DNA of 64,000 nt from Raillietiella orientalis. Taxonomy: Eukaryota. The translations under genes were made by a program, and so were the position numbers. The notes under the pieces were generated by a model. The model had not been told where the DNA came from. It searched no databases and saw nothing but the letters and a program-made list of their open reading frames with translations. Shown piece after piece: positions 8,194-62,050 of the stretch. The number at the start of each line of letters is the position of its first letter. The first letter of the stretch is position 1. Where the stretch lies: assembly GCA_036172245.1 (NCBI GenBank), contig JAYWIR010000019.1, positions 434,001 through 498,000 on the forward strand. The letters run 5' to 3'.

Positions 8194-8421
8194 TGTATTT
8201 TTGGATCGCATTGTTGGCCGCGACACGCTGACGTCACGCCGCAAAGCTCCACTTGAGGCGGGCCAGTTCAAAGTCGCTCTGCGTGTATTTTTTTGGATCG
8301 CATTGTTGGCCGCGACACGCTGACGTCACGCCGCAAAGCTCCACTTGAGGCGGGTCAGTTCAAAGTCGCTCTGCGTGTATTTTTTTGGATCGCATTGTTG
8401 GCCGCGACACGTTGACGTCAC
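8194..8421. repeat. 92-bp tandem repeat, about 2.5 near-identical copies, each with TGACGTCA
   Basis: GGATCGCATTGTTGGCCGCGACACG starts at 8203, 8295 and 8387; units differ only by a few substitutions and T-run length. Confidence 0.95.
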
Positions 8422-11029
8422 GGTGCTCCATGCCCATCCGCAGAGCGTGCTGCTTTGAACGCTTTTGCCGACGCTCTTCCAAAGCACAAGGCTGATTCGG
8501 AACGCTGTTTCGTTGTGCCCCGTAGGGAAGAAGTGAAGTGGCTCCGCAGTGGAGGGTAGTGCATCCCTTAGTTTCACGTACGGAAGGCCTTTCTGAAATA
8601 AAGGAATAAAATTTGAGAAAATTCGGGAATAATGGGGGGAACGAGTATTTTGCGGTTCTCCCACCATTTGAAGTCTTCTAGCTATCGACCACGGTCCCAT
8701 CACCGTATTTTAAACTTCTTGTCCAGAGTCGGACTGAGAAAGGAACGGGGGGAGGGAAATGGGGTGGTACTCTGGCCACGACAGTTCTAATTTACATCCT
8801 GGTTTGGGCCGCTTCATGTCACTCCGCACGAGGAGGATGGCGGCTCCTGGGATGACGGCCACATCGGGTGATCGGGTGAAAAGTGCCAGTCTTCGGCCTT
8901 CATGCCCAACGGCATGTAACCGGTCCAGTCCGCCTTTATTTACTGACCGACAGGCCTTCCTCCCTCGCTCCTCTTCCCTCCCATTGAAATTTGGGTCAAT
9001 TCGTTCCGGGAACCCTCTCTTGTCGTATTTTGTTTATCGTCTACATAGAGTAGGGGGTCTGGCGTGCTGGAGCGAGTGGGCCGTCACCTCGCAGAGTGCA
9101 CTCTGCCCTGGTTCTTTCCTGTTTGTGACTTGTGCAAGATGTGCTTGGTCTCAGGTTATCAGGAGCTCGCTGATCTCCAAGGTCGCGACACTTTCGGAGC
9201 ACCTTCTCACCCTCTGGATCGCACCGTCCGGTTTCCGCCGAACTCGTGGGCATCACCGTGCAAGGAGCGAACGCGTCGGTGACCTCGCATGGCGCGTTTC
9301 GCCGAGTAGTCCGCCGCTGGAACAGGAGGAATCTGCGCGCCGCCGTTTCAGCTTCCGGTGGCTCTCGCTCGATGGTGCTGCGTGGCACCCCGCTCCCGTA
9401 GCAGCATTCTCGATGCGTGCTGCCATCTCGCCGTGACTGGCAGAGGTCGGGCCGCGGTCGCCGGAGCTCTGATCCCGCGCTGCGCTGCTCTCTTTGGGCA
9501 TCTACTGTCCGGTCCGCTCCCCATGGCCCTGCCTCGCGTGGGCATGGCACACGTGGACCCTCTCCGCGTGGACGACCCGAAGGTCGCGCTCCCTGACGGT
9601 GGCGTCGTACATCTCGCAAGCGCCGACCGATGCGATGATTTTGCCCGTCCGGCTCCCTTCCTCCCTAGCGAACGCTGCACCCAAATACGCTTCCTCGGCT
9701 CCATGGCAACGCGCGCCGGCAGGGAAGAGAGGGGGAGGAGGTGCAGCAGCGGATTTCGAGCGGTCCTTCGTTTCTCACCCGGTTGCGCCGGGGCATTTAT
9801 TCTTCCGAATAAAACGAGAGTCTGTGGCTTAACTGGTGATCCAGCCATGCACGAATAAACATGAGCGGTCCTTCGTGGACTCTTCCGCGCCGAATCGATC
9901 CCGCAGGATTCGCGCAGCCCTCCGAAAGGCGGCAGCATGGGCTCGATCGATATCCCGGCACGGAGACGGAGTTCGCTCCCGCGCGTCGGCCGTCGGCCGA
10001 ACGAGGGTGGAGTCCCCCTCCTTTGGGGACGTTTCGGGATGATCAGACGATGTCAAAGATCCGGACGAAGTATCATCTGATGCTGGAGGTGTTCCGGGAA
10101 GCGGAATACCATCATCGAAAGAGGTGATGCTGGGACGGGCGGTCGCGGAGGAGACGCGCTCCATGGCATCCCCCCCACGCGCGCAGACGTGTAGCTGGGG
10201 AGCCTGGACCGAGATCCGCAGCGGAGGACCCGCGGGCACCGAAGACGTGGGCTGGGCGGCTCGAGCGTGACCTTGAGGAAGCACCTCTGCCGGTGTCTGA
10301 GGGTGTGCTCCGGATGTATGAATGACTGGTCCGCGCGCGACTCCCATCCAGCCCGGTCCAACGTGAGCAGCGCTCGGCAGGACGTGGCTTCCTCCGGCAG
10401 ACACCAGGGGAGGGTCGTCAGGACGCGATACTGACCCCGCCTCGAGCGTTTCCGTGTCCCCACTTGCAGAAGGAGATTCCGTTCCGCCGTCGCGCCGACG
10501 ACGCTCTCTGCCTCCTCCCGGGAGGGATTTTTTCATCTTTCATCACCCCACACCTCCCTCCGCGGTCGCTGTCCCCGGATACCGCACCTGACCCCCTGTA
10601 TCGGGGACGGCCACTGACCCCCGGACGGTAGGCTGGAAATTCCTCTTTGACCTGCCACCCCACATCAGAGAAAAAATTTCGCATTTCCCCTTTAAAGAAG
10701 CGTCTCTAAGAAGAGCGGCCGTCTCCTTCCGGTCATCGCCTACGCCCTGGACGTCATCACCGCCAGCGTGGTCGCTGTCGCGTCATCACTGTCGGCGCAG
10801 CGGCCAACGTCGACCGGATGTGGAAGCGATTGTTGTGCTCTTCTCAGCGGAAAAGTTTTTTCTTGAAGTATGCGGTATCTTTTCGCGGTCGTTGAAGGGC
10901 AGAAATGCCTGAAAACGCCGCTGTTAAAGGCAAGGGAGGCGGGAAAACCACGTCTACGAAGCCTGTGGAGGTGGGGTCTCGCCCCACCACCCAACCGACC
11001 CCGCCATCCCGGAGAGGGCATGGAGCGCG

Positions 11030-11665: not shown

Positions 11666-12900
11666 TACGGCTCTTCTCCTTCACCCCCTACTTTTTGTTT
11701 CCCCCACCACCACCACCGATCATGAAGAAAAGGACCGAGGGGCTCTTCAGGAAAACCCTTTGGGGCACAGGGAGGTCCCGTGTCCTCTTAAAAGACTTGT
11801 GCGCTCCACGCAGGGACGGTGGATTGGGTTTTCTTACGCTGGAGCGCATTCGGAAGATTCGCCCTTGCAGAGAAGTTTTGGATTACACCTTGGTGCAAAC
11901 CCGCACTCCTCCTCGCCAGCAGAGCGACCGGCTGCGAAGGATTGTCCTCGATCCTCGTGGCATACCAGAGCAGCTTAGGCGACTGTGGCCATCAGCTGCG
12001 CCAGATGGCTGCCCTGACGAGGGAGGATACCTGGATCTCCTGCCTCCCCGCGAACTGCACTGCCTAGATTCAGGAGTCAGTTTCCGCGTGGGCCAAGATC
12101 AACGGCACGAGCGAGGCGGAATCCAACTGCCTCCGTCGAGGACCCAACGCTCCCCTGCAGGAGATCATCAACAAGTCGCGGAAGTTTCTGTGGGCTTCTT
12201 TGACCCCCCTTGCCCCCGTGCTGTCCTCCCTCAAGAACATTAGGAACAGCAACGAGCGAGCATCGTGGGAAGTGTCCTGCCTCATCCGAGGCAGGAGAAA
12301 ACCACTGAAGGCGTGGACGACTCGGGAGCTAGCGGACGCTGCGACCCCGAGCGTCCCGTCCAAAGGACTTGTGCGCTGGGGCGAGCTGCTGGGCATACCT
12401 CCGGAGGAGGTGAAGTAGCCCTCAGCGTGCTGGGATAGTCGCACCCTGTCCCTGGAATGGCAGGAGACGGCGCTGCTAGTGTTCCATTGGGGACTCCTTT
12501 GCAAAGCACGCCTCTCCCATCGGACATTCGGGACTGTGGATGCCAATTGTGCAGGGTGCGGGGAACGGGAGACCTTCCCCCACCTCAACATCGAGTGTGT
12601 CGCCCTTCGACCCATGTGGGATCGACTGTCGTCGATCTTGGACATTCCCGGGGGCGATCCAAAGGACCTTTTCCGTCGCCTCCTGATGCAGGACGCCCTG
12701 CCAGCAGCCGCGTGTGTTGCAGTTCTCTGCTGCATACGCGGAATCCTTGCAAAATGATCCGCGTAGAGGACAGGCCACAATAGCCGGAACGCCATCCACT
12801 GGGCGGCTGTGAACATTGAGAAAGCTTTCCGATGGCCCTGAGTAAGAACTTTGCGACCAGCACTTGTCCGCATCCTGAACAGGATGCAGAGGACCACTCG
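11666..12900 (+). pseudogene. L1/Tx1 ORF2 C-terminal region (post-RT and zf-RVT), frameshifted
   Basis: LFRKTLWGTGRSRVLLKDLCAPRRDGGLGF (the post-RT FLW...L..P...GGLG motif) and FHWGLLCKARL...DANCAGCGERETFPHLNIECVALRPMW (zf-RVT). Confidence 0.85.
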
Positions 12901-13399
12901 GGGCGAACAGTGATCCCTTCCCAGCCCTCCGCTCTCCTGAAAACATTCCTCTCCCCTTTAGTTTTTGTTTAACTTTTTGTTTTTTTTTTGTGGTTTTCCC
13001 TTCCCCATCGCCTGCAGAGAGGACCTCAGCGGCCTGCGGGCCGGTAGCGGCAAGTGTGTCAAGACAGGCAGAACCACGTGTTCTGCCTGAACATAATTAT
13101 AAGACTTTATTACGAAATTTTTCTTGTAAAAATTTTAATAATAAATGCCCCGCATATCCGGGTGACACACGTCGTCGCCGGCATCCTCGCCATCATTGTC
13201 ACTGACGTCATCATCGTCATCCCCGACTGCCAACCCCCGATCGCGTCCCCCTGGCGCTGACCTGTGTCCCTACCCGGCAGAGTCTTCGCCCTGACTTCCC
13301 TATTCCCTTCCTCCCGCTTTCCTGGCGCGAGGCGTGGCCAGCATTGGGCCCCTGCGGCGCTGAACGCCCTCGAGGCAGTCACTGGGTTGTAGGAGCAGG

Positions 13400-30148: not shown

Positions 30149-31074
30149 TAAGAGGAGCATTTCAGTTGTAATAGCGGCTCGAATATAAAGAACGAACAAA
30201 TAGGGGGAACGAAAATGTATTGGTGGTGGTTCGAAACACGTGCATCCCCATGCCATTCTTCCACGTAGTCGCCATTCTTTCCCCAACCCCTTTCGACACC
30301 ATGGAAGGAGCTTTTTGGAACTGTCCGCATGAAATTCCGCCGCCTGAGAGTTCATTCAGTTCAGCAGCGCCGCAGTTTTCCACTCCTCGCCTTCCCCCTC
30401 GAACCGTCGAGCCACCCCTCAAGGCGCAGGAAGACGTGGTGGTCACTGGGCAGCACTGTGGGGTGGGTGATGTTGAAAAGTTCGCGTTTGAATTTCTGAA
30501 CTGTCTGGAATGTGCGGACAGCAGTGTGTGGGGGACCGAAAGGGTGCGCTTTTGGTGGTCTTCATGGAGCCTGGAGCAACCACCACTTCGCAAGTCCACA
30601 GTGGAACACTTTCAAAAGTGCGGCGTGCCATTCAGCAGGACCGACGACGTGGGATGCTGAGATCAGGAATTGCTGTTCTCCTTCACGACAACCCACGCCC
30701 ACACACTGCTGTCCAGACAATTCGGGAATTCGAACGCGAACTTTTCAACACCACCCACCCCGCAGTGCTGCCCAGTGACCACCACGTCTTCCTGCGCCTC
30801 GAGGGGTGGCTCGACGGTTCGAGGGGGAAGGCGAGGAGTGGAAAACTCTGCGGTGCTGCTGAACCGACTGAACTCCCAGGCGGCGGAATTTCATGCAGAC
30901 AGTTCCAAAAAGCTTCTGCCACGGTGTCGAAAGGGGTTGGGGAAAGAATGGCGACTACGTGGAAGAATGGCATGGGGATGCACGTGTTTCGAACCAGGAA
31001 GACATTTTTGTTCCTCTTGCTCGTTGTTCTTCCTTTCTATCCGATGCGACGTTACTTTTGAGATGCGCCTCGTA
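30149..31074. mobile_element. palindromic mariner derivative (MITE-like) built from two 3' ends
   Basis: Right TIR TTACTTTTGAGATGCGCCTCGTA (31052-31074); decayed left TIR TAAGAGGAGCATTTCAGTTGTAA (30149-30171); TA at both ends; inverted arms 30228-30532 and 30698-30995. Confidence 0.85.
30525..30970 (+). pseudogene. mariner transposase C-terminal half
   Basis: GDRKGALLVVFMEPGATTTS...LSKVRRAIQQDRRRGMLRSGIAVLLHDNPRPHTA...PSDHHVFLRL, then frameshifted SQAAEFHADSSKKLLPR and KNGDYVEE; mariner HDNARPH and GDYVEK motifs. Confidence 0.9.
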
Positions 31075-35980: not shown

Positions 35981-36489
35981 ACAGGCCTCACCCTGGCGGA
36001 TCGCCCGCGCACCTCTGCCGCTCGGTCGCTGGCAGCTGCGTCCGGAGGACGCGCATCGGCCGTGCCGCACCTCACCACCGCACGTTCCGAGGCGCGCCGC
36101 GTTTCACTGCTGGCGGGCCGCACGCGTGGATTTCCTTCCGGATTTCCCCTGCCTCTGCGAAAAGGGGCGGTCCATTCCGAAGAAGCGCACGGCCTTTCCC
36201 ACTGACCAGCAAGGTCTTCCCAGGTCGGCGCGCGTCCCTCTGAGTTGGATGCTGCGACCGCCGGGGTGGACTGTCGTTCCACGCTGTCGCCGTCCAGTGG
36301 CTTGCCGCCGCATCTCTCCCGTCCCGAAAGTGCCATGGGGCAGCTGCGTCCCAGCGGCCCCGAGCGTCGTCGGTCGGTCCTCCGTGCAAACTTCCTGCCG
36401 GTCTTGGCCCACCCTCCCGGGGCCGCGCCGGTGTTCGGCACCTTCTCCGCCGGACTGGCGCAAACCGTCCGGTCGGCGGTGAGCAGCTC

Positions 36490-37850
36490 GTGGCGGCCCC
36501 CCTCCGTCCACTTCCGACCGTTCCCGCGCTTCGCGTGCGCTCAGACCCCTCCAGCGCACGCACCTCTCCGCGGCCATCCGCGCAGGCTCTCTGCAGAGTG
36601 GAAGGACGAGGCGTTGAGTGCAAACGGAAGACGCCCGCAGGACTCCGCGGGAGCGAGTCGCCAGTCGCCAGCCCCCCCCCCCTTTCCCCTTTCCTTCCTT
36701 CCTTCTTTCCTTTTGCGAATGACGCGCGTAGCCAATCAGCGAGCACGCGGCCATCGGCGGCGTCACCAGGACTGCTGGTCGCAACGGTCTCTTCGCAGCG
36801 CGAGCCATGCCGCTGGCCAACGCCGTGCTCTCGCTCTTTCCTTCTTCTTGCTGTTGCGCCCGACGGAGGTCGCTCCCTCTGCGACTCCTCCTCTCGTGGC
36901 ATCGGACGACGACTCTCCTGTCCACTTTTTCCACAGCGGGCTGCGCGAGGCGTCTCTTTGAGCGAGTGCCGCGGAAGAATCGCGCGCGTCACCGGAACAG
37001 CAAGAAGTGAGAAGCGGGCGGCGCGCTTCACTCTGCGCTGCTGCCGAACGGGCAGGCGTCCGAAGCAGCCGCTTCCAAGGAAACGCCTGTGCCTGCTGCT
37101 GCTGCTGCTGCTGACGCTCGCTGCCAAAGGCGATAAACGTTCGAGCGGTGTGCCTCGGCGTCTGCAGCACGGGCGGAAGACAGTTAGTGGTGGTGGTGAT
37201 TTCGTCACACGAAGGCACCCGCGCATGGGCGGTGAATGAGAGGGACCGAAGCGGCAGCCGTTTGAACATGCGACCGCCACTCGGCGGCGGTGCTTCCGCC
37301 TCGCAGGGTCGAAGAGTCGCGACGGGATGGCTGGGACGCCGTCTCCCGAGCACCGGTTGGCGCTTGCGACGGCCGATGCGCGTTCCTGCGGATGGACGGA
37401 GAGTACCGCCGTGAGTCGAAGGTGCGGCGAGCGCGCTGAAGTGGGCGATCGTCGTCGTGCTGGCCGCGACCGTGGGGGAGGCGAGCGCCCTCCGCAGGCG
37501 GCTGCGCCGCGGACCAGAAGGTCGGATCGGGATGACCGCTGAGCAGGAGCAGGGATCTCGGCGGCCATCCCGGTTCCGCGCGAGCGAAGGGCCTTCTCAG
37601 GTCGGCTGGCTCACGCGGGTGTTCCGTTGCACGTGGCGCTTGCGACCAGAGATGGATGACGTCACCGCGCCCGGTGCTCGCTGATTGGCTACTCTCGGTA
37701 TTCGAAAAAGGAAGGAAGGAGGGAAGGGCGTGCTGGCGACTCGTTCCCACGCAACGCCTCGAACAGGGTGCTCCGGAGGCGTCTGAGAGCACGAGAAGCG
37801 CGGGAACGGTTGCAGCTCCGGCAACGAGCAGCAGCCACGGGTCCATCGTC
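36490..37850. repeat. long diverged inverted repeat (foldback/MITE-like), arms ~36490-36810 and ~37600-37850
   Basis: GTAGCCAATCAGCGAGCAC (36728) versus GTGCTCGCTGATTGGCTAC (37674); CCGTTCCCGCGCTTC (36508) versus GAAGCGCGGGAACGG (37795); colinear with internal indels. Confidence 0.8.
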
Positions 37851-38990
37851 ACGCGTCTCCCGCACTGGTCGCGTGGGTGTCCCGGACGGACGCGACGCGC
37901 GCGACACCTGGCGGCCGTCTCGCCGCCAGTTGCACCCCCGCTGCCCGATCCACCATCGCCGCCTTCGTGGATGGAACGGGCCCGCAACGGCCGCACGGAA
38001 CCGGGGTGACTGGGAGCCGCCGTCGCAACCGGGAGGGAGTCCCGATGGCGGAAGGTGTGCGCCGGCTCGTGTCGGCAGCAGACGACCCGCTGTTTCCGTA
38101 GCAACGTCGAATCTCCAGGTGGCTGCGGTCGGCAGACGCGGGGTAGCGGTGAAACTCCGGGGAGCGACGGGCGGCGACGTCGGGAGGTGGACCGCGGGTG
38201 TCCGGGAGGAAAGGAAGGGATCGCTGCGTGCCATTCCGCCGCCGCCTCTCCGGAAACTCCTCTTCGACGTCCAGCAGCACCTCCCAGGTGGAACCACAAA
38301 ATGGCATCTCTGGGAACCGTTGCACAGGTAGAGGTCGATGGCTCGCCTGTTGCAAGGAAGCCTCTACCGATCTGGACTTCTGCGCACGTCGGATCGATAA
38401 TGATGAAGCGGGAAGACGCGACCGGAAGTGCAGGTTTCCGAGCAATCGCTCTCAGCACCGAGCATGCACTCCGTTGTCATGGATCCCATGTACGTCTGCG
38501 AACGAGGTGCTGCTTCGTGCGTGATGCAACCAGAGTTGGCAATCAAGACGGACGCGCTCGCGTCTGCCCGCTGTTATTTTCTCGGCTGCTTCCAAGCGCT
38601 CCGCTGCGCTGTACCTCAAGACGCCGCGCAAAAGCGTCAGCCTCGCTCGCCGGCGGACGATCCCTCATCCCCTTGTTTGGCTCTTCCTCCCTTCTTCCCC
38701 TTATAGGCACGTATTTGATCCCTGCTCCCTCCGTCTCCGACTGGGGACACCCCCTTCCCTTCCCACCCCGGTGTCTGCAGCAGACGACGGACGACAAGCT
38801 GCGGCGCTCGCATCTCGGACCGGCTTCCGGTGCTCCCAGTGATGCTGCCGGCCGCTCCGCTCAGGAACCCGGGAGACGCGGCTGCGCACAACCGTCGATG
38901 AGCCAGCGAGCACCTCTACTGGTGTCTCCATCCAACCCCCGCTTGACACGAGAACGAAAGAGACGGAGAGAGAGAACGAAAGGAGGAAGT

Positions 38991-39193: not shown

Positions 39194-41649
39194 GCAAGCT
39201 GTGGTTCTGTCGCGGACGCCGGACATCTGCTCTTTCGCCCATACTTCATCCTTGGCCGCAGACTCGGTGTAAGACAGAGAAACCATGCAAGGAGGTAGTA
39301 GAGGTTCGTGGAGAGCGAGGAGGGAAAGATGCTTCCAGAATGCCTGTGGAAGCTCCTGGACTGGAGCGCTGTGGTGGCCGCCGTTGTGGCGACGCTGCTT
39401 GACCGAAGCAGAGGACGAAAGCTAGCAGCCATGTTCTGCATTGGAAATGTGGCACGCGCGGGTCCGTTGGTGGGCTCCAGTGTGGTAGGTTCGCCTCTCG
39501 GGTTCATGTTCGGAAGTAGTTTCGTCCTCCTGGGACTCACGGACGGAGGAGGTTGCAGCGGGAGACGGGAGAACGCGGAAGCCTGCGACGAGTGCCGTCC
39601 AGGAGCACTGCTGTCCTTTAGGCCCATGATCCTTCCTTTCGCTTGCCGGTCTTTTGGCTAAGACCAGAGTGCAGCCTCCTTCCGTTTCTCCGGCCTGCTG
39701 CCGGTGCGCTGCCGACAGCTAAGTGACGCCTCGTTCTGTCCCGTCCGGTTGTCCGGCGCCAGAGGACGAAGGCGCTCTCAGGGAGCGGCAAGCGAAAAGA
39801 AAAGGAAGGTCGGCAGCGCGAAGAGTTCGCCACCCAAAACCCCGGGAGACTCCCGGACCTCTCCGGGCGCGGTCTGCTTGCGTGGAACATCGCCGCTCCC
39901 ACGAGAGGACACCGCCGGCTGGCAGTTGCCTTCCTGAAAGCGAGGTCGCGCGATCCGATGGGTGCTCGCGAGTTTCCAGCCGTTGGTCATCCCGAGGCTC
40001 AAGAGGGCCAGTTCCTCCAGGGGAGGGTCGCTGAGGCCGTTCGTGGCCTTTCCCGACTTCGGGATGAAACCTCCAGGATGCGACGGAAGCTGGTCGCGAT
40101 TGCGACGCGAACTCCGCCCCACGATCGGCCGGAAGCGTCTGCGAGCAGAGCTTTCGCGGCGGCCTGCCGAAAAAAGTGCGACGGAAGCTCCCGCGCGCGC
40201 TTGCCCTCCCCCCGCCCTCGCCTAAAGGCGAAGAAAAATCGCGAGAAGAAATGAGCTAGGCGCATGCGCGCTCCCTTTACTACAGACGGTGCGTGGACTG
40301 AATATCCGCCCTGCCTATTAACTACGGACGGACTAAGGGCGGATGGACGGACGGTCCTGCGCGGGAGGAACGCGCGCGCACTGGAAGACTTCGCGCCGCC
40401 TTCCTCGCGTGTCTCCCCCCCACGCTCCCCACGCAGGCGACGGAAGGGGACCTGCGGCGAGAACTCCATGCCGCCTACCTGACGGAGGAGACCCGCCTCC
40501 TGGCTCGAGGGGAAGGTTCTTCTCAGAAGGGGGGATCGGCAATCGCGGATTCCTGGCCGGGGTGAGCTGGCGCGCGTTGCCGGCGGAGGCGCCGCGCGGA
40601 AACGGCGAAACATTGGTCGCGTCACGTGTGTTTTCGAGGGAACCAATCACCGACGGCCTTCGGGAATTTTGGAAAACTCCGGCTCCCCCCCCCCCCCCCT
40701 CAACGGGAGGGGGGCAAATACGCCACGGAGTCGAGCGAAGCGCTCGTTAGTCCGCGCAGGCGCGCGCCCGAGCTGCGCGGTCAGAGTTCCCACAAAGCCT
40801 TGGCTACGCGTGGGCCCGGAGCGAAAGCGCAGCTCTTGCATGACGCGGTTGCGAAAAATCCGAGCGTGCCCTCTCTCGCGCTGCTTTCCCTCCGCTGGGG
40901 ACGCACGTGCGGGCGGGAAACTCTGCCGTCCGCCCCCCTGAAGAGGAGGAAGGAAGACGTCCCGTCGTCGTTTCAGGCACACGAGGGGGGAGGGCGTGAG
41001 GGAGGAAGAAGGTGGGGATGTAGAGAAGCCCGGGCACGGGTTCCACCTGACCCCGGGTCGACCCTGCGTGAAGGGTGGGCGCCGCTTTCTTCCTGTTGGA
41101 ATTTTTCGGAAAGCGTGTCAACTACCCCACCCCACCCCTCCTCCCCCGCCACTCCTATCTACTCCTACTCTGCACTGCGTGCGCGCGCGTCTGCCGCGCA
41201 ACACCCGAAATTCTCGGAACCGCGGCTTCGGGTGCGACGCGGAGCCGGCTTCCCGGTGTCGCGCCAGAAACACAGTGCTGCCAGTCTCTTTCCTTCCATA
41301 TGCCGGGTCGTCGTTCGACAGCGCTGCTGTCACGATCCTGCGAACGTGCGCCAGTACGAACGTACGTGGGGTGCCGTCCATTGCCCATACCATCACTGTT
41401 TTTGTTTTTTTTTTTAATTGCTGATACTCCTGTCACTACCGTTTACTATTATTAGCATCAGTGTTCCTGTGTTTGCCACTATCAGGATTTCTATTTTATC
41501 CCCTTTTCCTTCAGGTCTGTCATTACTGTCGCTGCCCTCACCAACACTGCTCCATAATTAACAGCTCAGCTACCAGCATTGGTATTATTAATAACTGCCC
41601 ATTCATATAATTACAACAAATACCGTTACTATCGGTACCAACTAGTAGG

Positions 41650-42230
41650 TCCAGTTCAAAATCCCGAAAGATCATAAAAAATAAACGTAGATTAGTATAC
41701 AGATTTCTACATAGATTAAGATACAGATTTATTTTAACATACACAGTTATTCATATTCGAGTCGCACATACTAACAGGAATATTATTGGAACACATTTAT
41801 GTAACATAATTAATAAGTTATGTTGTTCATGTATATATTAAAGATTGTAAAAAACACATACGTATGCTTAATATATATGTTCACATATATATTTATACCA
41901 AGAAGGATTAATATATATCTTGAAGATAATAAAAAATAAGTATACATGTTTATTGTATATGTATATATGTGTCTGTACGTATATATATATAAATTAAATA
42001 TGTAAATGATTATATTATCTATAAATATTGATGTATATGATAAGCATATGGTTCTATTTTTTAAAATCTTCACGATGTATATAGCAGCAGTATAATCAAC
42101 GTATTAATGGCATTCATAAAATGTATGTTACTGTAGTTGCTTATATTCATGAAAGACTCATAAATATGAGTAGCAACGTATATTAAAAGAATCTGTAGAA
42201 TAAGCCCATGTCTTCATTTTTTATGAACTT
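41650..42230. other. AT-rich (TA-rich) low-complexity island flanked by degenerate (ACT/ACC)n tracts
   Basis: Abrupt switch to very low GC with TATATA runs. Confidence 0.8.
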
Positions 42231-42809
42231 TCGGGATTTTGATCGGCACCTACTGACGCGACTACTGCCATGCGGCACTACTACTACTAGCACTGTTTTT
42301 TTGGATATTGTCACTGCAATTATTCGTGTCACGATCAGCGGCTACACTGCTACGAACATCCAGCGTCGCCGTTACCACGGCTACCACTGCTGCCACCTGC
42401 GAAGATGCGCGCGCTCCCGTGTTCTTCTGCACGGACTTTCGCCGTCCGGAGGCTCCTTCGTGGGCGGCATGGGAGGTGGTGGGGCGTGTCCGGCTGGCCA
42501 CTGTCCCCCTTCCCCTCTCCTCCTTCCGCGACCCGCTTCGTTCCTCGGGAGCACGAAGCCCAGAGGAGAGGAAAGCCTCCTTTCGGAGAGGTCTGTGGCT
42601 GGATCACGAATTGCCGCCGTCGCAGCATCACCGAGCGCTCCATTCTCCGGAGGGGCCGCGAGGGGACGGGGTGGGCCGCCTCTTCTGCTGCGAGCGGGGA
42701 GCGCGATCCGCTTTCCCCTTCCGTCAGCGAGGGGGGGGGGAGTCGCGTGCGTTTGGAATGGCGACCTTCGCGAAGAGGAAAAGGGGAGGAGGGGGGGAGG
42801 GAGAACACT

Positions 42810-43000
42810 GAGAGAGAGAGAGAGAGGGAGAGAGATGGGGGAGGAGGAGGGCGAGAGGTTGGGCGCCCTTCTCCGCTGCGACTGCCTGCGGCGTCCGGCC
42901 GTGGCGGGTGGGGCGAGCTGCGCGTGCGCGCGCCGCCATTGGTCGCTGCCCTGCCGCAGCAACGCTCGCCGGCCCCGCAGCCCGTCGTCACACCGCAGTA
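42810..43000 (+). promoter_or_regulatory. putative Pol II promoter of the small secreted-protein gene
   Basis: (GA)n tract 42810-42834, GC-box-like sites, ATTGG (reverse CCAAT) at 42938 and Inr-like GCAGT at ~42996. Confidence 0.4.
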
Positions 43001-43227
43001 GGCGCTCGGAAGGTTCGCGGAGTCGGAGGAAACGCGCGAGGCGAGCAGCAGGCACTGAAGGGGTTGCTGAGCAGCGAGCGAGAAGCAGCCAGCGGTAGCA
43101 GCGTCGGCGTCTCCTCTGGGAGTTGCGAGAAGAAGAAGGAAGACCAGCAGCAGGAAGGAGGTTTCTTGTTTTTGTTTTTTCCTGCCCCGCCCCCCTCCCT
43201 CTTTTTTCTTGCTGCGCTGGCCTTCTG
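42998..43227 (+). other. putative non-coding first exon (5'UTR)
   Basis: Ends at a CTG|GTAGGT donor. Downstream acceptors lie at 43708 and 43875, with a possible optional UTR exon 43709-43773. Confidence 0.4.
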
Positions 43228-43933
43228 GTAGGTGGTGGCGCGAGCCGCGGCAGGGTGGGCAAGCTGCGAGCTCCCTGCTGCCACCGTCTTCGCTCCCTCG
43301 GGCTCCGAAGGGTCGGATGAGGGGAAGGATCCGGAAGGTCGCCGGCTGCGAGCCTCCCGGGGTTCCCTTGTCGCATCCTGAGAGTGGAAGCACGCGGCCT
43401 CTGTGGGGGGAGGGGAAGGACAGACAACACGTTGTCGCCCCCACTCTCTCGCAGGCCCGTGCCGTGCGTTTTTTTAATGTTTTACTCGATGTTTTTTTTC
43501 TCCTCACTTCCCCGCCTCAGCACCGCAGCAGCGCCACGGATGACGTCACGACCGCCCGCGGCGCGTCGGCGTCGTTTCTGGCTTTCCCGGACGGTTGAAC
43601 GACCCCAGCGTGCGTGCCCTCGAGCGAGCGAACGTGCGGCGCCGCGTTTCCCCCTTCCTCCGCCCCTGCCGCGGCCCTCATTCTGCCCCCAACTCCCTTC
43701 CCCCGCAGGTGCCCGAAGGGAATCGCCAGCAGGCGGGGGCAGTAAAGGGAGTGCGAATCCACCGTCGCCGCAGGTGCGGAGGAAGGGGCCGTGACCCTCT
43801 CCACCCTTCGTTCCCCCCCCCCTCGCCGCAACCGTTCCCGACAGAGGGTCATTCAGTTGCCCTTCCCTCCGGCAGGTGCCCCCGACAGAGGAGTGCAACA
43901 GCGGAGGACGTTGACCCCATCAGCTCTCCAAGC

Positions 43934-44117
43934 ATGAAGCTGTGGATATGCTTAATGCTGTTGGCGCTCGCGCAGGTGTCCCGAGCCGAGGAGGCGGCGG
44001 CAGTGGCGGCCAGCGCGGAAGGTGAGCCACAGGCCGAAGGGGAGCCTGCGGACAAGATAGACCACAGCGGTCACGGGAAGCTTTTGGCGGAGCCTGAAGA
44101 TGATGGCTATTTGTCGG
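43934..44117 (+). CDS. coding exon 1 of a small secreted/GPI-anchored protein (signal peptide plus acidic ectodomain)
   Basis: Acceptor CCTTCCCTCCGGCAG at 43875; AGCATGA start; MKLWICLMLLALAQVSRA|EEAAAVAASAEGEPQAEGEPADKIDHSGHGKLLAEPEDDGYLS; phase-1 donor G|GTGAGC at 44117, alternative AAG|GTGAGC at 44021. Confidence 0.7.
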
Positions 44118-44201
44118 GTGAGCAGTAGTGTCCGGCCCATTTTGCCCCCGCCCCATGCCCTCCCTTTGCCCGCCTGCCTTGCGAGCTGTCACTTCTTTCA
44201 G

Positions 44202-44281
44202 GTGGCTCAGTCGCCATCCCCCAGCTCTTGCCTGTGGTTCTAATACCCGTGCTGTACGCAGCTGGAGGGCCGTCGATGTGA
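44202..44281 (+). CDS. coding exon 2: GPI-signal-like hydrophobic C-terminus and stop
   Basis: 84-nt intron ending CACTTCTTTCAG; the phase-1 join gives G-GSVAIPQLLPVVLIPVLYAAGGPSM-stop (TGA 44279-44281). Confidence 0.65.
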
Positions 44282-46499
44282 CAGGCCCAACCTCCCGGCG
44301 GGTGCCGCGTGGACACGCGCGCCCCCTCCATCGCAGTCACTGTCCTTGCAGCTGCTCCCGACCGCCCGTTTTCCCGTTTTCCTTTTATTTTGTTTTTTTT
44401 TTGCTTTCACCCCCGATTTTTTCGCCCCTCCCCTGCTCCTCCCCCTCCATCCATCTCCACGGCCAATTACACATTTTTTTTCTACAACTCGCCTCGAGTT
44501 GCTGTTGTTGGGGTCAGGCAAGCCCTTCGGGGAAGGGCTCGGCGGGGCGTGGCCGGAGGCGCCCGCCATCCCCGCGGCTTCTGGGCGTCGGGACGGCCTC
44601 AGCAGGGGGAGGGCGCGTCTTCCCCGTCGCCTAGCATACCCAAGGCGGGCGATCCGTCTGCGTTCACCCGAGCACCCAAAACGCTTCATGAGAGACGGTT
44701 GAAATCCCAGAAGGGCGCACACCGCGCAAGTAAGGGAAACGGAAGTGCCTCCCATCCTACCAGCATTGTGAGCTGGACCCAGGCGAGACGAATGGGAAGA
44801 TGGGACACCAAGGTCAGTCGCCCAGGGGATGACCTTGGGAACGAAACGCGGGCCCCCAGGCTTAAGGGGAGCCGAAGTCAAAGCTGGTCGGTCTTCTCGT
44901 AAGTGCGTGTGCTGCTTCTGTGTGGAGTTGCGCAAGGTTCTGCGTGCCCTCCTCGTTCCCCTGCCAGCCCTGCCCTCTCGTGTGAGGCGCTGGAAAGCAC
45001 GTTGCACGAACTCCCGACTTTCCCCCCCCACACACGCACTTCCGCACCCGTCCTCCTCGACAGCTTGTCGGGAACGACAACCTTCCCAGAGCAGCAGTCG
45101 CATCCCTTCGGGAACTCGTTTTACGCCCTGCTCGGCGGGACGCGGCGTCTGGCCCCAGCTGCCGAGACCTGGGAGAGAGAGCGTCTGCAGGGACGCCCCA
45201 GCTTTCCCGTAATATCCGTTCTTCGAAGCAGGGGGCTGCCAAGCGTTTCAGCTTCTGCCGGCAGCATCCTTCGCGATGCGTGATCGGAAAGCAAGCGGGA
45301 AGGGAAACGCGCGCGTTTCTTTTCTTCTGTCTTCACCTGTTGGAGATGCTCTGTTCGTGATGCCTATGGCCGAAAGATTTGCAAAGAAGAGAATGTTTGC
45401 TTTCACGATCTCCACCCCCGTTTGCTGCAAACCCAGCTTCGTATGGAGTGGGAGCCGCAAGATGAAGGGAGGCGAGAAGGCGGCTCCTGTGCTTGTCCAG
45501 AGTTCGCGCCTACGCAGAAAACGCAAAGGCAGGGCAGATGCGACTGGCTTTGTCGGCCGCCCCCTCTCTTTGTTCTGCATCGTTTCTGCTTCTGCTAGGA
45601 GTGATCCCTGTGCCACCCGCGCTGCTGGGAACGCGCAAAACGTGCCCTCATGTGCAGCAGGTTTGCAAAAGGCGCTCCAAGAGGGTTTTTCTCGAGCGAC
45701 CGCCTGCGGGTAGGCATGATGCGCAATCGTTCTGTTTCGACGAACCGACAGGGACGGACGGGTTCCTGCGGCGCGGAGGTTCCTCCTCTTCGCGCGACTT
45801 TTGTGCTACGTCATTGTGAGCTTGCGAGCGCCCGCGAGACGGCTGTTTGCAAGGCCTCGCCATTTTTTTTTTTTTTCTCCTTTTCTTTTTGTAGGACCTA
45901 ACGTTTCTGCGGCAGCAGGCAACAATGCAAGGCCGGATTTTCGTGGATGACAACGCGTGCTGGCTGTACGTGTCCTCGGCAACGGGCAACAATGCAAGGC
46001 CGTGTTTCCGCGGCAACGCTAACGGCAGCAGAATGCCCTTTCGGGCTCGCGTGGCGGGGACAGTCTGGGTGAACTGACAGCCCGGTTACCAGCTGAATTC
46101 CGCATGCGGATCGAAACAGCGGACTATTTCCGCTGTAAGACGAGAAGTGCCTGTGCGCGAACGAGGAGCTCTCGCCGAGAACATCACTAACGGTTGTCAG
46201 GCCGCGTCTGCAGGAAGACGCCTATTAGTAGTGCACGAAGTGTCTGCAAACCCCGCCTGCCATCGTGCTGCCGTGGATGTATTTGGGCCGAATTGCGACC
46301 GTAGCCGCGAGGTTCCCCGATCTCCGTTTGGATCGGGGGCCATGCTAATTTTCCACCGCATACCTCAGCCGTGCTCTCCCAGGTCTTGCTTGCACAGTGG
46401 GAAGGAAACCGCTTCCGGAAGTGAACTCGAAATGCAGCGATCCGTCCTCATTTGGGTCACCGTCTTTCCACTCTCGTTCCTCCGAGTCCTTCGCTTCCT

Positions 46500-48130
46500 A
46501 GGAACTCCCGGTGCAGCAGGTGACTTCTGGAAAAAGCGTCCAGGGAGAGTCCGTGGCGCGAGTTGCCTCGTCAGCTTCCTGACTGTGCAGTTTGGTTTCC
46601 CTCCTGCCGAGTGTATGCGACGTGCTGGGAGGGGGTGGGGGGTTGGCCTCCAATCTTTCCAGACAACAGATTCATGGGAACTAGGCATCCTTAAGGACAC
46701 TGGCGAAGCCACTAACGGTGATCCTGGGGGTGGTGGTGAAGACAACGGCCACCTCAAGACCTACTTCGTTGCCACCAAGGCGACGCCCATGGTCAGGACA
46801 CCAGGGAGAATTCTCGGGCGCATTGTATCCCAGATCCTCCTGATTTGGCACCCCACGTCTCGGGCCGGGGGCATTCGGGTCCGGCGGCCCTGAGTTTTAG
46901 GCGTCAGTTCCACAGTTGCAGCACCTTTTCCGGGAAGGTCGCGTGAGGGGAGTTTCTCCGCCTCTGCTGCCGTACGTCGCCTACTATCGTGGACATACGC
47001 AGCCACGTCCGGTATCGTGGACCTCGGCTGCGCTCGCCAGGGATCAGAGTAAGATTCCAGAGTACGGACATGGCCATCGGCGGCGCCATGAGGACAGGGA
47101 GAGCAAACAAAAGGTGGGCGTCTCTCCCAACTGTGTCACCTCCCGTCCCTCAGGCAAGCGCCGTCGTCCCCAAAGGGAGCGTCATGACCGACGTCGCATG
47201 GGCGAGGAGGTGGAACGCCTCTTCCCCATGGCGGCGGCGAGATGCGCGGGAGGCGGTGCTCCGCCCATTTGCGGCTAAGGGCTGTGATAGAGCAGCCACG
47301 GTAGGTATACATCGACCTCTCCTTACCCCACATGCACCGCCCGTGGGCCCGACTTCTCTACCAGGTCGGCGACCCCTCCGTAGGCAGCGGAGAAGGGCGT
47401 GAGATCAGCGTACGTACGCTCCCCGGGTGTGCCCCTTTTCCGCTCTTTCCCTCCCCCCTTGGTAAAGTCCTCCCGGCTGACCTGCTGCGAGGAGCAAACG
47501 GCACTCCCGCGGTTCTCCCGAGGACGTGGCTAAGGGTGTTCCCGAGAGAACCCCTCAGAATACCAGGGCTGTGAGGTCGCTCCGCAGAGGCGGGAGGCAC
47601 CCTCTCGACCCGAGGTTCCTCGACGACTCTCGGCGGCGCCGTGCCCAGATCCTTCATGCCGTCCGGGTTCAGCACTGGCTACAGCGTCCATACGCCGTGC
47701 CTGCGAGGAAAGAGGACACGGAGTGGCGATCCTCTCTGAGCACTGGACCCCCTTCTGTGCTACATGCGAAAGGACGAGCAGTGGCACGCGGTGGACGAGC
47801 AGCGCGGGGTACCACGATGCGGGAAGGGAGCGACCGGGAGTCTTGTCTCCCTCGCCTGTAACCGCTCTGATAGCCCACCGCTCCCCAGACTGAACGGAGG
47901 CTGTCGGGGAGGTCAACCGCACCCTGGGAAGACGTGGAGAGATGTCCCTCCCGCGCACGCTTTCCGACGCCTCCTGCCAGTGGCGTGGGAAGCTGACCAC
48001 CTCGTTGGCTGAGGTCGGCGACGGCTTAGTTAAGGAAAGCATTCACCTGATCAAGGCTGACCTCCCTCCCAGTAGGACAATCCTGGAGTTGATGCTCGCA
48101 TTATCAGGGTCGGTCTGCCTGCCCCCCCCT
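46500..48130 (+). mobile_element. decayed L1-clade ORF2 (RT domain 3 to zf-RVT)
   Basis: DFWKKRPGRV...FLTVQFGFPP (D.EKAFDRV...FGF), HVRYRG (YLG-like) and PRCGKGATGSLVSLAC, in the correct order. Confidence 0.55.
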
Positions 48131-59529: not shown

Positions 59530-62050
59530 ATTGGCACCCATTTATGCCGGGGCATTCCTTACGTAATGTAATGTAATAAGAATACATTGCTGTGATAGGA
59601 CCGTTGGTTCTACCACGTGCAAGGAACCTGCCAGGGAGCTGTGCGCAGACCGGCAAGGTCCACTTCGGTAGCGTGGGAAAAGAAAAATCAAAAACAGGGG
59701 AGGGGAAATTGTACATGGGGAAAGAAAGAACGAGGAAAGGATCATGGCACGCTGCCAGGCGTCCTCTGCATCCTGTTCAGGATGCTGGCAAGTTCATATC
59801 GTCCAGATGGGGCCATCTCGAAGCTCTCCTCACGAAGATCCACGCCCAGTGGATTGCGTCCCTGCCATGCTGGTCTCCTCTGACCGTTCCAGGCCTCCAC
59901 CATCTCCCGGACGGGATAGCGGAGAACCTCGAGGGATGCGGCTGGAGGCGGTGCGGCACGCGCGAAGGGACGCCTGAAAATGTCCCTAGGGGGGCGCCCA
60001 TCGGAAATCTAGGACCATCGCGAGGCGAACTTAGGGGGGTCAGAGAGCAGCTCAGTCCAACAGAAGGTGAGGGAGGGTCTCCTCATTCCCGCACCTGGCG
60101 CACGCTGAGCGTCCACGCTTCCTCCCGTGTCTAGTGGTGAAGGCGCGCTTTGCACGGAATTCCCCCGTGCAACACCAGCAGCGCCAACTTCCGCCACTCG
60201 AGGGGGAGGGAGCCACTGTTCCAGCACGCTGGGTGCCACTTCATCCCCTCCAGAGGGATGTCGAGCAGCTCTCCGTAGCGTATAAGTCCGTGTGGTGGGA
60301 CACTCGGGGTCGCAGCGGTCGTCACCTCCCGAGTTGTCGGCGCCCCCAGAATTTTCTTCTTTACTGCAATGCAACAAGTCACCTCCCACCTTGCCGGGAT
60401 CACGCTGTCCCTTGCATCCCTTAGGGAGGGCAGCACTAGGGAAAGAGTGGTTTACGAGGGCAGGTTGCGGACGATCTCCTCCAACGACTTGAGTTGATGC
60501 CTCGTTGCAGTCAGAGGCGTACCCCGCCTCACTGACGCCGTGGATCTTCCCCCCAGGCGAAGACCGACTCCTGGAGCCAGGCACTGCAGCTTGCAGGGAG
60601 GCAGGAGATCCAGGTGTTCTCCACCAGAGCAACCATATGGAGGAGTTGGTATCCGCAAGGTCACCTCAGCAATCTCTCACAGGAGACGAGGAGTAACGCA
60701 AGTCCCTCGCAGCCAGTTGCGCTCTTCGCGAGGAGCCGTGCTGGCGCGCACCAGGGCGTGGTCCATAATCTCGTCGTAAGGGTGAGTCTTCTGATGACGG
60801 TGCATCCTCTTCAGCATGAGGAGACCCATCCCCACCGTCCCAACGAGGAGCACACAAGTCTTTGAGTCGAACTCGGGATCTCCATGTGTCCCGCAGGACT
60901 TTTCTCAGGAGGTCCTCGGCCCTTCCTCTTGACGTCAGGTGGGGAGGGCAAACGAAAAGCAGGGGGCAGAAGGGGGGAGCCTCGAACGCGTTCCGCACCG
61001 CGGTCCGTTCCTGCAATTGAAACCTGCCGTTCTGGAACGAGTCGAAAGCCATCTCCATTCTTTGGAGACGGCCGGACCAGGGTGCTGCTGCGATGCCGAA
61101 CGGAACGCCAAGGTGCTTGAAGTACCCGGCCATGGGGATTCCCAGGCGGATACAGTCCTGCCGTCTGGCACACGCTGCAACCACTGGCACCAAGGACGAC
61201 TCCACCCTGGCCGCCTAGGTGGGCCCAGGGTGATGGAAACTCTTCCGGGTTCTTCTGTTTCGCTGCTTTCCTTCCGGCTTCTTTTTTTTTTTTTTCCAGG
61301 TTTTCTTTTTCTCCTTTTCTTTTTGGTTCCCCAAGTGCCGAAGAACCGTCCGCCTCCTCGAGAGGCAGGGGGGGAGGAATCACGAAGCTCTTCAACGCTG
61401 TCCACGCCGCCTGAGGGTGCGTGTGACCCTTCAAGTTCGGGGGTGACCCCGGAAGGAAACCACTCTGGAAATCCAGGAAAGGCTCCCGAGGGAAGGAATC
61501 TGCTCCTCCCTTACTCTTGTGAGGAAACCTTGGAAGGGGCGACTTCCTCGTTTCTTCTCCGGAGGGAGCCCCAGGAAAGGACCTGCTCCTCGTTTCATCC
61601 TCCTCTGAAGAGAACCCTGAAGGCACGCTTCCCGATTTCCCAGAAGGGCGCTCCCCGGAAGGAGCAGTGCTCTTCTGGTACTCTGGAGAGGCCCCCCCCG
61701 AGGGGGATATTGACCGGCTTCATGGTAGAGGCCCCATTTTCACAACCGGAAGGGGAAGAGGAACTCCGAAGAGCTCTTCGATTCTTGGAAGGACCCTGGA
61801 AGGTCGACTTCCGATCCCATCCGCTCAACGGGGGCCAACGGAGGCCAACCCGCGTCATCTAGAGGGGAAGGGACTCAAAACCCGCGGCGCCCTCCCCCTC
61901 CGACCCTTCCCTAGGCAGCAGAATTCGAAGCCGTGACGTCCGGTGCCGTGCCTTGCGGAGGCCGCAGCCGTGCGGGCTTCGGTTGCTCCGATCCTTCGCG
62001 CCCGGTGGCACGTGGGGCGAACTTCTAGGATGGCTCGTCGCCACTTCTGC
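59530..62050 (-). mobile_element. L1/Tx1-like element (copy C): ORF1-like repeats and Lys-rich segment joined to RT C-terminus, post-RT region, zf-RVT and 3'UTR
   Basis: YFKHLGVPFG (RT YLG), RSRVRLKDLCAPRWDGG, AATPSVPPHGLIRYGELLDIP, LVLHGGIPCKARLHH. The 3'UTR is homologous to copies A and B. Confidence 0.8.

Follow-up and report, generated by a model that had tools for sequence, protein, structure and literature searches.

Very small or repetitive proteins held at the cell surface by a GPI anchor are a familiar theme. They include the EP and GPEET procyclins of trypanosomes, which are acidic and rich in Glu and Pro, the arabinogalactan peptides of plants and Cwp2 of yeast, while the mammalian CD24 is rich in Ser and Thr. 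CD24 is described as a small, highly sialylated GPI-linked surface peptide in the accessible part of PMC7917337. Mature CD52, also of mammals, consists of 12 residues (accessible parts of PMC7125958 and PMC7917337) and works through a large sialylated N-glycan (accessible part of PMC7917337). The general layout of a GPI preproprotein, as given in the accessible part of PMC7125958, comprises a signal peptide, small residues at the omega and omega+2 positions and a tail of 20-30 residues; the GPI signal itself has about 10 hydrophilic and then about 20 hydrophobic residues, without a cytoplasmic tail.

The locus studied here lies in a window of 64,000 nucleotides, by which we mean the whole stretch of DNA that was analysed. 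Like CD52, its predicted product combines a signal peptide, a tiny mature peptide and a GPI signal. Unlike CD52 it has no Asn and no sequon, and no sequence similarity between the two was found. Since the N-glycan site of CD52 is missing here, a glycan-poor acidic peptide would need another mode of action. The candidate also differs from CD24: with 3 Ser and 0 Thr in 43 residues it is not mucin-like, and no homology was found. Judged by its predicted product, it shares the design of CD52 and CD24 without belonging to either family. The procyclins, arabinogalactan peptides and Cwp2 belong to other kingdoms; compared with them, the candidate lacks a long EP repeat as well as Ala-Pro glycomodules, and no homology was found.

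The candidate gene is on the plus strand, with its ATG at 43934-43936 and a TGA at 44279-44281 (Table 1). A phase-1 intron of 84 nt with GT-AG ends (44118-44201, GTGAGC...TTCTTTCAG) interrupts the frame, and its removal leaves a CDS of 264 nt, or 87 aa. An earlier, sequence-only reading had proposed this canonical intron and this product, and its coordinates proved exact when we re-read the sequence. That reading had also let the hydrophobic tail run into the stop; the tail is present, but five residues (GGPSM) sit between its YAA and the TGA. The reading frame and the splice-site sequences are observed here, and the transcription and splicing of the candidate gene are predicted. On the sequence features taken together, we consider it very likely that this is a real, single-copy, lineage-restricted gene. 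That its main product would be an 87-aa GPI-anchored precursor with a 43-residue mature form is our preferred reading, to which we give a probability of roughly 0.6.

Table 1. Features of the candidate locus, in window coordinates (a slash marks a splice boundary)
Feature	Position	Strand	Remarks
Possible promoter region	42810-42942	+	GA repeat 42810-42857; reverse CCAAT box 42938-42942; weak inference
Putative non-coding first exon	42950-43227	+	ends CTG/GTAGGT (4/6); 5' start imprecise
Putative 5' UTR intron	43228-43875	+	acceptors 43875 (10/12 pyrimidines) and 43708 (11/12)
Predicted signal peptide, residues 1-18	43934-43987	+	A at -3 of ATG; cleavage after S-R-A; own rules
Predicted mature peptide, E19-S61	43988-44116	+	43 aa; net charge -10
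Six-codon tandem duplication	44015-44050	+	AEGEP part; spans alternative donor
Alternative in-frame donor	44022-44027	+	AAG/GTGAGC, 5/6 consensus; 180-nt intron; 55-aa precursor, ~12 mature residues
Coding intron	44118-44201	+	pyrimidine-rich, C+T 0.67; coding score -13 bits; phase 1
Second coding exon	44202-44281	+	predicted GPI attachment signal, residues 62-87, then TGA
Putative 3' UTR	44282-44515	+	U-rich tracts; ATTACA 44466-44471; GU-rich ~44498-44511; 3' end uncertain

The hydropathy layout of the 87-aa product is a direct observation: two peaks, at residues 3-13 (11-residue KD mean 2.78) and residues 70-80 (2.53), flank a hydrophilic, acidic middle. By our own hydropathy and (-3,-1) rules the N terminus reads as a cleavable signal peptide. 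The predicted omega residue is S61, with 26 residues after it; G62 (25) and S64 (23) are alternatives. The predicted GPI signal, residues 62-87, consists of an 8-residue spacer with V, A and I, a 13-residue hydrophobic core (L70-A82) and five small residues; it contains four prolines and no charged residue. Omega, omega+2 and tail length agree with the description in the accessible part of PMC7125958, while the core of about 13 residues falls below the roughly 20 given there, which counts against a GPI signal. The genome encodes GAA1, a subunit of GPI transamidase, as seven pieces on contig C11 that cover the model; this presence is likewise observed. Together with the shuffled control below, the agreement with PMC7125958 (accessible part) and the presence of GAA1 support the signal-peptide and GPI-anchor-like architecture of the sequence-only reading, as judged with our own hydropathy rules, which do not replace SignalP or NetGPI. 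Its estimate of about 45 mature residues was close; our cleavage and omega rules give 43 (E19-S61).

The C-terminal stretch might instead stay in place as an uncleaved membrane anchor, which would make the product a single-pass microprotein that has hardly any cytoplasmic tail. Its hydropathy of 2.5 over residues 70-80 would suit this, and residues 65-82 could cross a thin membrane. Three prolines fall within those same residues, no basic residue lies beyond them and small residues stand at the correct distance for an omega site, all of which argues against it, and we regard an uncleaved anchor as highly improbable.

The chance expectation for such an architecture was estimated by scanning both strands for a signal peptide, a GPI signal and splice sites in one- or two-exon products of 55-130 aa. 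The real DNA scanned amounted to 855,869 bases (the window, its flanks, scattered 10-kb stretches and gene loci). Under these rules, which were drawn up after the candidate had been seen and are in that sense a post hoc fit, it is the sole ATG to pass in the 855,869 bases, in strict and loose settings alike. In 162 Mb shuffled by 10-nt blocks there were 4 matches under strict and 30 under loose settings. Blocks of 70 nt leave real hydrophobic stretches intact, and with these the counts were 11 strict and 109 loose in 167 Mb. The expectation per 64 kb is thus 0.0016-0.004 strict and 0.012-0.042 loose chance matches. Extrapolated to the genome, 5-14 strict matches would arise by chance, which counts against the candidate. 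When both hydropathy peaks and the coding score were required to be as strong as the candidate's, none of the 11 strict and 3 of the 109 loose matches from the 70-nt shuffles remained. Reversed and complemented DNA (643 kb; the two amount to one control) gave no match.

These counts bear on the possibility that the locus is no working gene at all but, within GC-rich intergenic DNA, a frame that is open by chance or a gene in decay. Signal-peptide-like starts are about twice as common in real DNA as in the 10-nt shuffles (77 in 0.86 Mb against 6,809 in 162 Mb) and the locus was a first-stage pick made from very many windows; both points favour chance, as do the codon usage, the absent canonical poly(A) signal and the failure to find a homolog or paralog, all treated below. 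What such a frame would leave to coincidence is the convergence of both signals, the splice sites, the frame and the coding score on one locus, at a strength that no strict shuffle match reaches, next to a duplication with synonymous changes and a putative 5' UTR that is free of upstream ATGs and has splice sites of its own. We consider a chance or decaying frame unlikely.

Coding potential was scored with models trained on 5,717 codons from 38 genes of the same genome. A synonymous codon score as low as that of the candidate, -4.3, is seen in only 7% of 56 coding chunks, and 59% of 1,358 stop-free stretches equal or beat it; the candidate's codon usage is non-diagnostic, like background, and it is here that a chance or decaying frame draws support. 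Three-periodic Markov models were applied in six settings. In five of them the candidate frame ranked first among the six frames and exceeded 97-99% of the 1,358 stretches; in the sixth it did not rank first and exceeded 90%. Compared with true genes, the Markov score sits at the bottom of the range, and in 3 of the 6 settings it falls under every training chunk. As the training genes are globular, both kinds of model may be biased against a signal-rich peptide. The tandem duplication provides evidence independent of training: its AEGEP copies differ at 3 bases, 3/3 of them synonymous third positions, and the sixth codon changes from Q to A. This synonymous pattern, expected roughly 1 time in 27, suggests a coding sequence. 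The genes of this genome form two classes, one with low CpG and low GC3 and one with CpG near 1 and high GC3, as expected under gene-body methylation; the candidate (CpG 0.85, GC3 0.70) belongs to the high-GC3 class. On contig C19, which carries the window, AT-rich gene clusters alternate with GC-rich regions.

The splice sites of the candidate match or exceed most of 14 control rows, which counts for a gene; in the control set, which includes three rows that are doubtful, donors scored at least 4 in 7/14 rows and acceptors at least 9 in 5/14. The sequence-only reading gave a single splice form. Its 87-aa product is open to translation, but donor 44022 and intron retention, which would give 55 and 64 aa, had been overlooked. 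Donor 44022 matches the consensus better than the 44118 donor (5/6 against 4/6); both are phase 1 and they have the acceptor in common. Were it the main donor, the same gene would make a 55-aa precursor, and the resulting GPI-linked peptide, with about 12 residues, would equal mature CD52 in size. This form passes the architecture rules too, and its 180-nt intron is within the span of the control introns, about 50-200 nt. It would omit 96 nt that are purine-rich and, at +9.5 bits, the most coding-like segment, whereas the 84-nt intron scores -13 bits; the whole 55-aa form scores -0.025 per codon against +0.096 for the 87-aa form. Because the 96-nt segment is coding-like, the 84-nt intron is not, and the synonymous duplication crosses the upstream donor, the 44118 donor is favoured, and we think it very unlikely that the 55-aa form is the main one.

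Retention of the 84-nt intron would take the product in another direction. A TAG at 44126-44128 lies in frame three codons into the intron, so that retention would yield a 64-aa product without an anchor, which as main product would be a secreted, soluble acidic 46-mer. This peptide is acidic and Cys-free with a Tyr between acids, and in composition it would be similar to the anticoagulants of ticks and fleas, which are small acidic peptides, if it came from a blood-feeding parasite; pentastomids feed on blood. They also possess a cuticle and anterior glands (accessible part of PMC2643528), which we counted for a secreted product. Variegin-like acidic thrombin inhibitors of blood feeders are, like the candidate, short, acidic and Cys-free, and the spacing from a Lys to a later Tyr among acids is 18 residues in the candidate and 17 in variegin (accessible part of PMC3203879). 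The same part of that source gives variegin a Pro at P2, a His at P2' and a Phe for exosite I. These features are absent here: K41, in the place of the P1 Lys or Arg of such inhibitors, has Asp at both P2 and P2', and the whole protein has 0 Phe. We rejected a variegin-type identity as far as that source describes it. Such inhibitors are soluble, unlike the predicted anchored form, and the candidate had no PDB match among them. Furthermore, a secreted main product would not explain why a good acceptor is followed by a GPI signal that is intact and in frame. It would surprise us considerably if the soluble form were the main one, and the 87-aa precursor remains our preferred product.

Upstream of the start codon, no ATG occurs between 42900 and 43227, and all four upstream ATGs fall within the putative 5' UTR intron; the sequence makes it plausible that a non-coding first exon ends at 43227. 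An N-terminal extension was considered and rejected: the frame is open to 43544 and across the putative first exon, but has no Met before 43934. Between 43700 and 43890, CAG/GTGC occurs at 43708, 43773 and 43875, and these sites may be alternative acceptors or delimit a 65-nt extra 5' UTR exon.

The 3' end is the weakest point of the candidate gene, and the sequence-only reading had passed over its lack of a canonical poly(A) signal. No AATAAA occurs 3' of the stop before 57588 (about 13 kb), and none of 12 common poly(A) hexamers before 51678. At 22 control loci, mostly highly expressed genes and including several 'stops' that are probably intronic, AATAAA lies downstream in 18 and within 250 nt in 14. 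The only hexamer present is ATTACA at 44466, flanked by U-rich and GU-rich tracts; ATTACA accounts for 0.40% of human mRNA poly(A) signals in the accessible part of PMC12421377. The absence of a nearby poly(A) signal would fit a longer transcript that starts with these exons and continues, by splicing, into exons far away that encode a larger protein, either secreted or in the membrane. Donors at 44730, 44813, 44899 and 46520, which would also permit a spliced 3' UTR, are compatible with this, as is an 18-nt segment at 46502-46519 (acceptor 11/12, donor 5/6, phase 1 on both sides) that could be a micro-exon or a 3' UTR exon. The sequence-only reading had itself named splicing from 44117 to such exons as the case that would overturn it, and among 164 downstream acceptors we found no convincing plus-strand coding exon: the best phase-1 exon scores 7.1 bits, against 20-70 for exons of the neighbouring genes. 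The second exon contains only a weak donor (3/6), and the next recognisable genes (TPR and Ig-domain) are on the minus strand. We give the longer transcript hardly any credence.

Searches of the organism's own genome (210 Mb, 491 contigs) with the DNA, exon 1 and exon 2 returned only the candidate locus itself; one further match, at E=3.2, reads as chance and was rejected as a paralog. A degenerate pattern spanning the junction revealed no processed copy (10 matches against 41 for a control pattern). With the first coding exon, a protein search found no homolog of near length, and an 831-aa repeat protein (E=3.6e-4 among 1.84 billion proteins) was discarded because its score adds up seven repeats. 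Nor did this exon match anything in Pfam or Atlas. Among solved chains (PDB), at E up to 10, the only hit was one unrelated chance match (E=1.2), and no Rfam family matched between 40 and 50 kb of the window. The earlier label 'orphan' therefore stands in that no homolog was found, but it carries little meaning: with no close relative in the protein databases and a low-complexity 43-mer, the absence of homologs says little, and cox1 itself has no relative above 74% identity.

Within the best 120 of 8,000 matches, cox1 is closest to three pentastomids (73-74%), with insects next (68-71%). A tree of 19 rows, using 18 of those 120 matches, groups it with the three pentastomids at 100/100, while the other rows hold insects plus a single unnamed sequence; it sits on a long branch, and groupings of this kind can be spurious. 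At least 14 matches to Chitin_bind_4, a cuticle family, identify the organism as an arthropod. The composition of the mitochondrial contig (A 36, C 29, T 28, G 7%) is close to the 34, 27, 31 and 7% (A, C, T, G) of Armillifer agkistrodontis in the accessible part of PMC5266366. The organism is likely to be a pentastomid, or tongue worm, a group of parasitic crustaceans, and to fall outside the genera sampled. On the mitochondrial contig (1-260 and 1774-2300) trnW seemingly lies beside cox1 and about 500 nt between trnL2 and cox2 are unassigned, which may reflect a rearrangement, a nuclear copy or an assembly error; at the relaxed threshold the tRNA order is too noisy beyond cox1-L2-cox2-D-atp8. 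As a separate observation, 54 cox1 matches spread over many nuclear contigs indicate numerous mitochondrial insertions. A literature search, whose reach left out most subscription papers, found nothing on GPI-anchored proteins or on secreted or surface peptides of pentastomids.

A Pfam scan of 354 of the 355 stop-to-stop frames of at least 100 aa in the window gave no match at the curated cut-off. This is compatible with the earlier claim that the candidate is the only intact gene there, though genes with short exons could escape such a scan. Outside the window lie TNFAIP8, inscuteable and a pyroglutamyl peptidase (its match under the cut-off) upstream and the minus-strand TPR and Ig-domain genes downstream, and these neighbouring genes offer no functional clue. 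Several repeats share the window. An AT-rich MITE at 41644-42254 precedes the putative promoter by about 600 nt; it is bounded by 42-nt terminal inverted repeats, and its diverged copies number in the dozens across the genome. The element at 30227-30996 has inverted arms of about 285 nt (95%) and a Transposase_1 fragment that is the window's best Pfam match (E=2e-4, below cut-off); from its sequence it is probably a mariner-type deletion derivative. A tandem repeat at 8198-8422 contains 2.4 copies of a 92-nt unit at 98% identity. One element, retroelement-like by eye and without a Pfam match, is present as two decayed copies in opposite orientation (12022-12921 and 59734-60622, 72-82% alike). 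Finally, 38000-38317 and 36391-36525 have copies near 514-516 kb of contig C19 (98% over 317 nt), either a recent local duplication or a young element.

Returning to the 87-aa precursor, its signal peptide would route it into the ER and be cleaved after A18. GPI transamidase would cut at S61 (or G62) and replace the tail of 25-26 residues by a GPI anchor, leaving a 43-residue acidic, Cys-free and probably unfolded peptide on the outer face of the plasma membrane, from which a phospholipase could shed it. We infer ER entry, transamidation and surface display because the precursor fits the published GPI layout and GAA1 is encoded in the genome; anchoring, location and function are predictions. 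Cys, Asn and Thr are absent from the 43-mer, which contains 3 Ser, 2 His and a single Tyr between acids. Since the peptide has neither a catalytic fold nor an N-glycan site, its simplest mode of action would be through charge or His-mediated binding. Our guess, a tentative one that we would not call likely, is that the peptide acts by charge, either by repelling contacts as a polyanionic spacer or coat or by binding cationic proteins or metal (His44/His47). Far more speculatively, and as a long shot, one exon pair might give three splice products (the 43-residue GPI polyanion, the 12-residue GPI peptide and the soluble 46-mer) with a role at the host interface, where the peptide, possibly Tyr-sulfated, would damp clotting or immune attack without an N-glycan.

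Tiny GPI-anchored peptides are already known, so the design itself is not new; the candidate sequence is without a known relative. For now the candidate gene is a well-formed prediction. If real, it would be a gene that annotation by homology would overlook, in a parasite group with scant molecular biology, and its product would be a candidate species-specific surface antigen.
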